64,000 nucleotides of DNA, taken from an uncultured bacterium. Its GTDB lineage: Bacteria; Armatimonadota; Abditibacteriia; Abditibacteriales; Abditibacteriaceae. The DNA lies in contig CAWJLW010000006.1 of assembly GCA_963843795.1 (NCBI GenBank), positions 3,546,375 through 3,610,374 on the forward strand, read 5' to 3'. The position numbers were made by a program. Positions 1-64,000 of the stretch are shown here, piece after piece (position 1 is the first letter of the stretch; each line of letters opens with the position of its first letter).

Positions 1-3000
1 TGGCTGACCGTCGCGACGGGGCTGGGTTTGTATATGTCAGCGGGCGCTGCCAACGCGATTAACATGGTGTGCGAGCGCGATTTGGATTTGAAGATGGAGC
101 GCACGTCCAAGCGCCCGACCTTGACTTCCGTTGCGCCGCCCAAGGCGTTGTGGTTTGCTTTTGCATTGGCGATTGGCAGCTTTGCCTTGTTATGGAGTGC
201 GGCCAATTTGTTAGCGGCGCAAATGGCCTTGTCCGGCCTTGTGGTTTACGTTATTGTTTATACGCTGCTGCTCAAGCGACGGACGTGGAGCAATATCGTG
301 ATCGGCGGTGCGGCGGGCGCTTTTCCGCCGCTTGTGGGCTACGCCGCAGTAACGGACAGCTTGTCGCCGATGGCGTGGGTCTTGTTCAGCATCGTTTTCG
401 TGTGGACGCCGGTGCATTTTTGGGCGTTGGCTTTGTTGATTAAAGATGATTACGCCAAAGCCGGTGTGCCAATGTTACCTGTAGTGCAGGGCGATCGCAA
501 TACAACGGTGCAAATCGGCGCTTACACAATTGCAACGATCGCGATTTCGCTGTTGCCATTTGGTTTGCATGAGGGCGGTTTGAATGGAAGCGCCTCGAGC
601 GCGGGCTGGATTTATCTGGTTGCGGTAGTGGTGTTGAACGCAATTCTTACGCTACGTTCGATTCAGCTATATCAAAATCCCACTCGACCGCGCGCCAGTT
701 CCCTGTTTCACTATTCGATGTTGTATTTGGCGCTGCTATTTCTGGCGCTGGCCGTAGATCGTTCCGTTATTTAGAATTTTTTGAGTTTGGCGAACTGGCA
801 AGTACTTGCAGGCCATTCCAAAGTGCTGCATATTATTTGGCAGCGATATTTTGAAAACGACGGGAAACGCAGTTTTAAAAAGCAGGTTGCCAGGCCAGTT
901 AAAAAGTAGTTAGAACGCAGGTAAAAAAAGTAGGCAGAAGAGAAGGCAAGAAAGCGCGATGGCTCAAATTTTCTCACCCAGTTCCAATGTGGTTGCCAAG
1001 CTCAGCATCGTCGGTGCCTTGATGGCAGTGCCGGCGTTGGGTGCTTCCATTTACGGCATCAACATGGTGTATGGCTACAAATACTATGTTCCGGTCGAAC
1101 AACCGGTGCAGTTTTCGCATAAACATCACGTCGGTGATGATGGCATCGACTGCCGCTATTGCCACACTTCAGTCGAAAAATCGTTCAGCGCCGGTATGCC
1201 CTCAACGCATACCTGCATGAGCTGTCACTCGCAAATCTGGTCCGATAGCCCGGAATTGCAAGTGGTGCGCGCTTCGTATGCCAGCGGTCAGCCGCTGCGC
1301 TGGAACCGCGTGCACGACATGCCCGATTTCGTTTATTTCAATCACTCGATTCACATCAAAAAAGGCGTCGGTTGTGAAACCTGTCACGGTCGTGTGGATG
1401 AAAAGCCACTGATGTGGAAATCGCACTCGATGACGATGTCGTGGTGTTTGGATTGCCATCGCCAGCCCGAAAAATATTTGCGTCCACGCGAAGCCGTGTT
1501 TACGATGGGCTACGTGCCCGGAAAAACCACAACCAATGCCGCCGGTTCGATGGCGTTGGAGCCGAGGTCGATCAAAGATACGGTGAGTGGTCGCCAAGCA
1601 GCACTCAAGGGCATCACCTACGAACAATTGCGCGAAGGCGAAGAAAAAGGCGAAGCTGGCGCGAAGGGCGAAGCCGGCGCGAAGGGCGAGGCCGGCGCAC
1701 AAGCCGAAGCGCATGGTGGCATGACGCAGTTGCAAATCGGGCTGGATTTAAAGCGACAATACAAAATCCGCTCAGCGCGCGAACTGACCGATTGCGGCAC
1801 CTGTCACCGTTAAAAGGTCAACATCAGAACGCCAGCGCTATTGAAGCGCAAACGTTAAAAGATCACGCAAGCAAAAGATCACGCAAGCACAGGCAAGTAC
1901 TTGCAGCGCACCGGCACGTACTTGCGAGAACAAATACAGTTGGGTTTGTAGGACAGTTAAGGAAAAAGATGTCGAATCCGTTGATTCAAATCCTCGACCG
2001 CACCGGGAAAAACAAGAATGTGCCGCTTGAAAAGGCTTTGGAAGCAGAGGTTTCCGCGCCTCTGGATTTGGCCGCTGTGCGCGCCAAACTGGCGCAGCAA
2101 AATGGCCGCACTTATTGGCGCAGCTTAGAAGAGTTGGCTGGCGACGATGAGTTTAATGGCTTCTTGGAGCGCGAATTCCCGCGTCAGGCACCGCGCGACA
2201 TGGCACCGCTGGCGCGCCGCGACTTTCTCAAGTTGATGGGCGCTTCGCTGGCCCTAGCCGGAGTTTCCGGTTGCGCGTTTCAGCCCGCAGAGCAAATCGT
2301 CGGTTATGTCAAGGCACCCGAAGACATGATTCCCGGCGTGCCACAATTTTACGCGACCGCGATGACGATGGGCGGTTATGCCATCGGCCTTTTGGCCGAA
2401 AGTAACATGGGTCGCCCAACCAAAATCGAAGGCAACCCCAGTCATCCGTCGAGTTTGGGCGCGACTGATATTTTCGCTCAGGCCTCGATTTTGGGTTTAT
2501 ACGATCCGGGTCGTTCCAAAGCCTTGCGCAAACTGCGCGATAACGCGACGTGGGAAGATTTCACCGGCGCTGTACAAGAATTGGCGACTCAGCTTCAAGG
2601 CACTGGAGGTGCCGGTTTTCATCTGTTGACGGAAACCATCACTTCGCCAACACTTGGTAACCAGATCGCGCAATTGAAGGCCGCGTTTCCGCAGATGCAA
2701 TGGCATCAATACGAGCCCAACACGCGCGACGGGGCGCGCGCTGGAACGCAGCAAGCCTTCGGTGTTCCGACGCATCTCGTCTATCATTTCGACCGCGCCG
2801 ACCGCGTTCTTTCTTTGGATTCCAACTTTTTGGGCGATGAGCCGGGTTCGGTCCGTTATGCACGCGATTTCACCGACCGCCGCCGCGCTCGTCAGGGCAC
2901 CAAAAATATCAACCGGATGTATATGGTGGAAAGCACGCCGACTATCACCGGTGCGATGGCCGACCATCGGTTGGCGGTGAGTGGCAGCGCGGTGCAAACC

Positions 3001-63000: not shown

Positions 63001-64000
63001 GGTGCTCGCTCATTCGCGAGGCGAGGCGTGCGCACGGGCCGAGGCAGTCGGCAGCTGTCGCAGAGGTGGACGCGAGCGACGAACGCGGGCCGGTCCCGCA
63101 GAACGAGAGAGCGACCGAGCGAGGCGAGAAGAGGAGAACTGCGGCGGCAGCAGGAATGGGCGGCGGCTGAGTACCATTGGTGGAAGCGCTAGCGGGCCGA
63201 ATCCGCTCGACCGCTATCCCGAGGCGGAGCGAAGAAGCCGCCGAGCCAAGTGACCTACGAGCTCCAGACCTCGTGTGGCGAAGAGGCAACACGGAACCGC
63301 TCGCGCGGACAGCGCCTCACAATCGACCCTTGCCCGTCGGCAAGAGTCGCCTTTAGTTGACTCTCATCTGAGTCAACCTTGGTTGATTCGTCGGAGGCGG
63401 CGTGAGCGGACATGAGGACGGTCTGTTATGCGTCCATGGTGGTGGCAGCGGGGCTGATCGGCAGCGCGGAAGCCAGCGAGAAGCTGCCTCATCGCGTCCT
63501 GGCCGCGGCGGTCGACCGGGACGGGACCGTCCGGATCGACGGGCGGACGAGCGAGGCTGCATCGCCCCAGTTCATCGGGGCCGCGATCCCGCGCCGCCGG
63601 CAGCTTCGCGCCTACGCCGGCCGCGGCTGGCACATGCGGCTTCGGCAAGGTTCCCTCCCCGTCGGAGGCTGAGGCGCTCGCCCGCAGGATCGCCACCGAG
63701 GAAGGTTTTGACCCAAGCCTGGTCGTGGCGGTCGCGCGCGCCGAGAGCCGCTTCCGCATGGACCAGGTCTCGCCGAAGGGCGCGGTCGGCCTCATGCAGC
63801 TCATGCCGGCGACCGCCAAGCGCTTCGGCGTCGACGCTTGCGATCCGGCCGACAACGTCCGGGGCGGCGTCCGCTTCCTGCGTGTTCTTCAGGAGCGCTA
63901 CCGCAATCCCATGCACGTCCTCGCCGCCTACAACGCGGGCGAGGATGCGGTCGAGCAGCACCGGGGCGTCCCGCCCTATCCCGAGACGGTCCGCTACGTC

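Follow-up and report, generated by a model that had tools for sequence, protein, structure and literature searches.

What produces the short perfect tandem duplications in the chromosome of an uncultured member of the Abditibacteriaceae, and what sets their length? The window, that is the whole stretch of 64,000 nucleotides analysed here (1..64000), is ordinary chromosome with respiratory, metabolic and envelope genes, and contains 14 perfect duplications of 10-24 bp. They are given below with unit length and copy number; a C(-4) pair is a C at position -4 at both ends of the unit on the same strand.

1857..1889, minus strand: 16-bp intergenic duplication, x2.06; 1 nt of microhomology, C(-4) pair on the minus strand
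5401..5436, plus strand: 15-bp in-frame repeat, x2.4, in the C-terminal tail of a 1349-aa Fe-S protein, outside Pfam domains
18374..18460, minus strand: 15-bp perfect array, x5.8, in the N-terminal tail of a protein kinase, ahead of the kinase domain (aa 72-311)
21675..21698, unstranded: 11-bp duplication, x2.2
25365..25392, unstranded: 14-bp intergenic duplication, x2; neither microhomology nor C(-4) pair, a counter-example
28474..28513, minus strand: 15-bp in-frame repeat, x2.7, in the C-terminal part of an NYN-domain protein, outside the domain; core of a decayed array at 28451-28520
30267..30292, plus strand: 13-bp intergenic duplication, x2; zero microhomology, plus-strand C(-4) pair, a type example
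30408..30451, unstranded: 15-bp intergenic repeat, x2.9; core of a decayed array at 30404-30485
34734..34779, unstranded: 21-bp duplication, x2.2; 4 nt of microhomology, without C(-4) pair
43154..43179, plus strand: 13-bp intergenic duplication, x2; zero microhomology, plus-strand C(-4) pair, a type example
44347..44381, unstranded: 15-bp duplication, x2.3; 5 nt of microhomology, without C(-4) pair
47018..47071, unstranded: 18-bp intergenic array, x3; neither microhomology nor C(-4) pair
47265..47285, plus strand: 10-bp intergenic duplication, x2.1; C(-4) pair present
51967..51990, plus strand: 12-bp core, x2, of a decayed array at 51952-52000; plus-strand C(-4) pair

The Fe-S protein with the repeat at 5401..5436 belongs to an alternative complex III operon, and this repeat is the core of a decayed array at 5392-5436. 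The initial annotation had placed 78 of 85 coding duplications of the genome outside Pfam domains, and this was borne out for three window loci, the only ones checked.

Number and unit length of the duplications

The studied genome (G000, 4.30 Mb in 11 contigs, with C6 as the chromosome contig and C4 as a phage-plasmid) contains 170 perfect tandem duplications whose units measure 12 to 19 bp, distributed by increasing length as 45, 13, 19, 60, 8, 5, 16 and 4. No unit of 20 bp was found, and 5, 4 and 2 duplications had units of 21, 22 and 24 bp. The recount agrees with the 168 duplications, 60 of 15 bp and none of 20, that had been reported before, and with the earlier figures for C6 (112, previously 110), C4 (31 in both) and the longest array (11 copies); two copies are present in 143 of the 170. 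Shuffling the genome in blocks of 3 bp and 6 bp gave 0 and 1 duplications, against 3 in the earlier codon-block shuffle. The description of the units as unrelated does not hold for 16 of the 45 12-mers, all containing the palindrome GCAAGTACTTGC; palindrome-containing 12-mers were excluded from all later counts. After this removal and the merging of neighbours, 145 loci of 12-19 bp were obtained, 90 on C6 (2.48 per 100 kb), 29 on C4 (28.9) and 26 elsewhere (4.5).

Coding and intergenic loci were separated with 3,400 gene calls from a simple dicodon caller. Intergenic units from 10 to 20 bp numbered 12, 13, 11, 11, 18, 16, 8, 5, 6, 4 and 0, whereas coding units were found 18 times at 12 bp, 44 times at 15 bp and 10 times at 18 bp, with 3 off-frame at 13-19 bp. 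The fixed length proposed initially was not recovered: intergenic units spread over 10-19 bp and it is the coding units that cluster at 12, 15 and 18 bp. The process is broad in length, with a mode near 13-15 bp and a wall at 20 bp. As intergenic lengths are broad, whereas 69 of 71 coding loci keep the reading frame, the spike at 15 bp mostly reflects a filter on frame exerted by selection and not a fixed-length nick. The duplication density was 11.7 per 100 kb in intergenic against 1.9 in coding sequence. Insertions that keep the frame occur preferentially near protein ends (33 of 71 lie in the outermost 15% at one end or the other, p 0.0025), and are rich in H, P, S and N and poor in hydrophobic residues. 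Among 189 loci of 10-24 bp in G000, 78 are perfect cores of longer, decayed arrays, where 7.5% would be expected.

Distribution among replicons and relatives

The contig C4, of about 100 kb, encodes a major head protein, portal, terminase, tail tube, RepA and ParA/B, and carries the palindrome GCAAGTACTTGC of its host. Its 26 kb of intergenic DNA hold 13 loci, where the 501 kb of such DNA on C6 hold 43, and its 74 kb of coding DNA hold 16, where the 3.12 Mb on C6 hold 47. This phage-plasmid is 6-14 times denser in duplications than the chromosome.

Samples of 100-200 kb were surveyed from 12 of 26 family genomes. In these samples the duplications per 100 kb reached 7.7 in G001, 7.1 in G017 and 5.0 in G009; intermediate values were found for G016 (3.0), G012 (2.5), G003 (2.1), G007 (1.7), G010 (1.4) and G014 (0.5), and none was present in those of G002 and G006 (140 kb) or G013 (100 kb). 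A metagenome search with the palindrome returned 111 loci, and most of the long ones fell, by record set and GC, into two groups, K and M; both were picked by the palindrome, may each mix organisms, and are about 70% identical to G000 where aligned. Group K (40 loci, 0.61 Mb) contains 115 duplication loci, or 18.9 per 100 kb; 43 of them have 15-bp units and none has a unit of 20 bp. Group M (20 loci, 0.32 Mb) contains 14. Twelve genomes of other Armatimonadota gave 5 duplications in 0.59 Mb. The outgroup, 80 loci around metK that represent a housekeeping neighbourhood with congeners included, gave 13 in 1.33 Mb (0.98 per 100 kb).

The proper baseline is other bacteria, at about 1 per 100 kb, and not a shuffle. 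The excess read from the shuffle exists but was overstated, as C6 stands at 2.48 against 0.98 for the outgroup. Likewise, of the signature that had been called family-wide, the mark at the junctions described below is found across the family but the high rate is uneven, from 0 to 18.9 per 100 kb among relatives. The duplication rate differs more than tenfold among lineages and replicons.

A same-strand C at position -4 of both unit ends

We examined microhomology at 81 clean G000 loci of 12-19 bp, where 28 had none and 31 had at least 3 nt, compared with 56% and 7% of random duplications, respectively. The junctions of G000 are a mixture of routes, and the excess of loci with at least 3 nt indicates that a second route, slippage, contributes. 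In the boundary logos, C at -4 and G at +3, the latter being C at -4 on the other strand, appeared separately in K, in G000 and in g1/g6, and it was in these sets that the -4 position was first noticed, post hoc. Over the 180 boundaries of 90 zero-microhomology cases, C was found at -4 in 83, with 50.3 expected from matched in-silico duplications, and G at +3 in 89, with 50.6 expected; the excess was present in intergenic, coding, in-frame and off-frame subsets.

Leaving aside 6 of the 90 cases that straddle the palindrome, and taking as ends those of the single-copy unit, 48 of the 84 clean cases exhibited a C at -4 at both ends on the same strand, against 14.5 expected (p 2e-16); the pair is absent in the other 36. 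Opposite-strand patterns were not enriched among these 84 cases. The boundary associations A-C and B-D were positive, and the opposite-strand pattern A-D alone occurred 0 times with 3.5 expected. When all 36 offset-by-base cells were scored, C at -4 gave 48 against 13.4 and the next largest, T at -2, 15 against 6.6, and this specificity for base and position means that leftover homology cannot explain the pair. In the held-out class with 1 nt of microhomology, the C(-4) pair was present in 24 of 39 cases, the corresponding counts for A, G and T being 6, 11 and 3. It was also seen in 6 of 10 cases (1.9 expected) from the duplication-poor genera g2/g3/g5, which had not been used to find the mark.

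Counts by source were made on units of 10-22 bp with 0-1 nt of microhomology. Within G000 the pair was found in 23 of 45 cases on C6 (8.6 expected), 4 of 7 on C4 (1.0) and 9 of 20 on the other contigs (4.2), and among relatives in 25 of 35 in K (9.1) and 8 of 14 in g6 (2.6). The sets from G001 (0 of 3), M (4 of 8, 2.2 expected) and other Armatimonadota (3 of 5) hold too few cases to tell, and those of G001 and M are not significant; the outgroups showed no excess (3 of 14, 3.1 expected). In G000 the excess appears at about 8-9 bp, continues up to 19 bp and is not seen for intergenic units of 5-7 bp. By strand, the pair fell 30 times on the template and 25 times on the non-template strand of transcription, and 12 times on the leading and 10 times on the lagging strand of replication, with no bias in either. 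The motif YTSAR, considered as another mark, was enriched in K units only (63 of 159 against 18.3) and at no single fixed offset.

The existence of a lineage-level, nick-based duplication process in the family is supported by these data. Of the nick and fill-in or slippage suggested in the initial annotation, the nick is retained, while the generic versions do not predict the C(-4) pair.

TopA and a proposed route of duplication

Type IA topoisomerases remain bound to the 5' end and are able to join it to a 3'-OH. Cleavage of single strands by bacterial topoisomerase I takes place 4 nt 3' of a C, by means of R169, R173 and Y177, and topoisomerase III has other residues and other cleavage preferences, as described in the available part of PMC3467081. 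That natural duplications carry this C at their two ends, on the same strand, speaks for TopA acting directly. In G000, topA lies outside the window (C6:3362758-3365145). Among five genomes tested, G000, G002, G006 and G009 each had a single type IA gene, TopA being the only enzyme of this type found, and TopA was found in 26 of 27 family genomes; none was found in G017 (84% complete), though this genome is duplication-rich. The nearest homologues of the enzyme that bear a name are labelled Abditibacteriaceae. Its catalytic core is canonical, and the C(-4) pocket residues R169, R173 and Y177 are intact, with the motif AQQARRVLDRIIGY in 10 of 10 aligned, as are the equivalents of E. coli R35, R168 and D172, with R168 and R35 conserved in rich and poor genomes alike.

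From the sequence evidence, TopA is quite probably involved in the duplications of this family. The duplications are real, and we consider it probable that they are seeded by the cell's own TopA when it rejoins a cut strand out of register. In the proposed route, TopA would cut one strand and stay attached to the 5' end. A polymerase, likely Pol I, would lengthen the freed 3'-OH by 8-19 nt through strand displacement; alternatively, a 3'-OH could be supplied by a second cut, 8-19 nt further on, in a sister strand. TopA would then join the 5' end that it holds to this new 3'-OH, provided that a C again stands at -4. Either version predicts a pair on one strand, the absence of microhomology and independence from Ku. 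Slippage or repeated events may afterwards expand and blur the arrays, and selection would clear off-frame copies from genes, leaving peaks at 12, 15 and 18 bp. We also lean, with less assurance, to the broader reading that wild-type TopA is a standing natural source of repeats that yields homology-free duplications of 8-19 bp, and that the family tunes its rate more than tenfold, among lineages and on a phage-plasmid, growing low-complexity protein tails.

If TopA does act in this way, a C(-4) pair on the same strand would offer a bacterial indel signature in which the birth of repeats from non-repeating DNA could be read. It makes repeat birth testable in vitro and, by a simple scan, in any genome, and it names a source for in-frame repeats in protein tails and for strain markers.

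Genes examined in relation to the duplication rate

A substitution in TopA was considered as the cause of the rate differences and rejected, as none separates rich from poor genomes in an alignment of 120 homologues, which displayed family-wide changes only (Q/K at the position of E. coli V31, RIIGY). Nine TopA positions differ in three zero-count genomes, with no clear meaning. MutS, MutL, RNase HI, RNase HII, ExoVII and RecJ were present in all five genomes compared, rich (G000, G009, G017) and poor (G002, G006), with no difference. In the 27 family genomes, the Pol I 5' nuclease (27), an SbcD-like protein (26) and RecQ (27) did not separate rich from poor, a DEDDh exonuclease found in 5 did not track the burden, and Ku was found in none. 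In the PolA tree the rich genomes do not form one clade (23 of 26 rows, with G016, G018 and the second G003 copy missing). No type IA enzyme was found on C4, and therefore weaker selection, supercoiling or a phage-encoded modulator were considered as candidates that may explain its density.

Alternative origins of the duplications

Ordinary slippage between short direct repeats could make and expand all units, with selection giving the in-frame peaks, and the at least 3 nt of microhomology in 31 of 81 loci, the 78 of 189 loci within decayed arrays and the arrays of up to 11 copies are what it would leave. The 28 loci without microhomology and a pair specific for base and position are not predicted by it, so that slippage as the whole explanation is improbable, being contradicted as sole cause by the C(-4) pair; it likely accounts for the microhomology class and the growth of arrays, which, with a subset of the births, fit it. 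Excision repair could instead make the nicks: incision by UvrC falls on the 4th-5th bond 3' of a lesion, and faulty gap filling could duplicate a patch of 12-13 nt or more. The position of the boundary, at the 4th bond on the 3' side of a C, and the intergenic mode of 13-15 bp are consistent with this. Such an origin is very unlikely, as both ends would need a lesion at a C on one strand, the C has no clear dipyrimidine context, and units reach 19 bp. Mis-ligation of Okazaki-fragment flaps through weak processing by Pol I or RNase H is about as doubtful. The duplicated units are similar in length to a primer or flap, the Pol I proofreading domain looks degenerate and the DEDDh exonuclease is missing in most genomes, but the acidic residues of the Pol I 5' nuclease are intact, RNase HI and HII occur in 5 of 5 genomes, there is no leading/lagging bias, and the C(-4) pair is left unexplained.

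Staggered double-strand cuts that are filled in and end-joined, or long transposon target-site footprints, yield microhomology-free duplications of bounded length. They are highly improbable here: Ku is absent from all 27 genomes, the opposite-strand pairs predicted by staggered cuts are not enriched, and G000 has no multi-copy insertion sequence with a long target duplication, its only candidates being 3 two-copy repeats of 0.6-6 kb, none flanked by a long repeat. An assembly or sequencing artefact, a worry already raised in the initial annotation, is equally hard to credit, with 69 of 71 coding loci in frame, a spectrum and mark that recur in independently assembled relatives, and a TopA rule that is not expected of an artefact. 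In its favour, G000 contains a 289-base run of A and a frameshift in mutS, and at the 21-bp duplication at 34734 a near-identical contig of run X1, from a population that differs at about 1 base in 400 elsewhere, has 224 letters where the window has 259 bases. This check relied on low-depth Logan contigs, and on one X1 piece spanning a duplication among the matches listed; runs X2 and X3 contained almost none of the sequence words looked for. We infer that the 35 letters lacking in X1 would match a single 21-bp copy together with one 14-bp unit from a neighbouring decayed array. The difference suggests a recent origin of this duplication, and is also compatible with an error in G000 at this place.

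The 12-bp palindrome

The palindrome GCAAGTACTTGC occurs in 2,567 copies in G000, 23 of them inside the window. A link between it and the duplications was rejected, since these lie no closer to it than random (median 531 against 489 bp), G017 is rich without detected palindrome and G006 has an iterated motif yet zero duplications. Six viral contigs bear the palindrome, one copy each, and none matched G000; no viral relatives of C4 were found with the major head protein as query.

Comparison with known systems

The R168 residue of TopA helps to hold the substrate. In E. coli, the topA R168C allele gives repeat-independent head-to-tail duplications of 2-19 bp in galK, and in the available part of that study no motif was found, direct action of TopA was left open, units up to 36 bp were listed, and how non-repeating sequence gives rise de novo to tandem repeats was called unknown (PMC6954433). 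We placed 25 distinct events from it on the BW25113 sequence (24 R168C, 1 R35P), a set that leaves out events below 5 bp, four short chemostat events and mutation-accumulation events, and the C(-4) pair was present in 8 of 25 against 5.6 expected, which is a small set. The laboratory allele may blur the junction mark. This mutator is the closest known case: repeat-independent short duplications are common to both (28 of 81 loci here lack microhomology), but a laboratory allele acts there, whereas R168 and R35 are intact and the natural mark is strong here, and the family process is thus similar without being the same allele. The base and offset equal the C(-4) selectivity of TopA, with no other strong context in either, as far as the available part of PMC3467081 describes; that selectivity is known from in vitro cleavage, whereas the present data show it at the two ends of duplications in genomes. 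A search of the open-access literature, with subscription journals and bioRxiv supplements outside its scope, found no report of the C(-4) signature in natural genomes. What we describe is a family-wide process with the mark of topoisomerase I and a rate that depends on lineage and replicon, a natural variant of a known laboratory phenomenon.

Eukaryotic topoisomerases also leave indels, Top1 short deletions and Top2 short duplications, of 2-5 bp, and Top2 needs end joining. As in those signatures, mis-religation by a topoisomerase would leave a sequence-marked class of indels, but here the enzyme is type IA, the units are 8-19 bp long and the Abditibacteriaceae have no Ku. Borg repeats are likewise perfect, mostly unique in their units, in frame and enriched on an extrachromosomal element (PMC9879509). 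By definition, Borg arrays comprised at least 3 units; the host has next to none of them, and slippage of the element's PolB was proposed as their origin, according to the available part of PMC9879509, whereas the duplications described here have mostly two copies (143 of 170), affect the host chromosome (90 loci) and have ends marked by TopA.

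A dispersed palindrome and the duplications that touch it

The genome carries 2,567 copies of the palindrome GCAAGTACTTGC, 1,823 of them intergenic and 23 in the window, and variants with a single mismatch are far rarer than the exact, HIP1-like word. Many copies are flanked by self-complementary arms of 9-13 bp and by A/T tails, an arrangement that resembles two-way terminators. The AGTACT core is kept in relatives with a different spelling around it (CAAAGTACTTTG in G001, TCGAGTACTCGA in G009), and no such palindrome occurs in genus g2, a family genus poor in duplications.

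Thirteen exact doublings of GCAAGTACTTGC lie inside perfect hairpins (for example at C6 373245 and 2705917). The perfect hairpins, together with the absence from all 13 of a C(-4) pair, in which both unit ends lie 4 nt 3' of a C on the same strand as in the topoisomerase I (TopA) cutting rule, suggest that these doublings arose by template switching. At position 5 of the palindrome, within the predicted loop, lies a TopA-type site; four short duplications, spread over the genome and the metagenome relative groups K and M, begin there.

Duplications and word use in relatives

In K, which possibly mixes organisms, the duplication density was 18.9 per 100 kb (for example loci L263, L265, L279 and L285). 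The word YTSAR was enriched in K duplication units (63/159 vs 18.3), and is also twofold enriched genome-wide in K. Family genomes strongly avoid CTAG and GGWCC and, in several of them, GTAC; other dispersed motifs are present in G006, G007 and G016. A DEDDh (DnaQ/ExoI-type) exonuclease was detected in only 5 of 27 family genomes. In the genome itself, the mutS gene at C6 2529267 is broken by a frameshift, which may be either real or an assembly error, into frames of 869 and 235 aa; it is unbroken in G002, G006, G009 and G017.

The phage-plasmid and the origin region

Contig C4 (L001-L005) is a 100-kb phage-plasmid whose genes are mostly without known function. A comparison of its major head protein with IMG/VR found no relative of the phage-plasmid. 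Its genes include:
C4, intein-bearing terminase
C4, Acb1-like gene
C4, ArdC-like gene
C4, strawberry-notch-type helicase, 2221 aa

A GC-skew switch and DnaA-box-like words near C6 3496499 make a replication origin likely there, about 50 kb before the window, and one 12-bp duplication lies inside this region. The final 12 kb of the window (52001-64000) form a GC-rich block (62-66% GC) nearly devoid of GCAAGTACTTGC and duplications.
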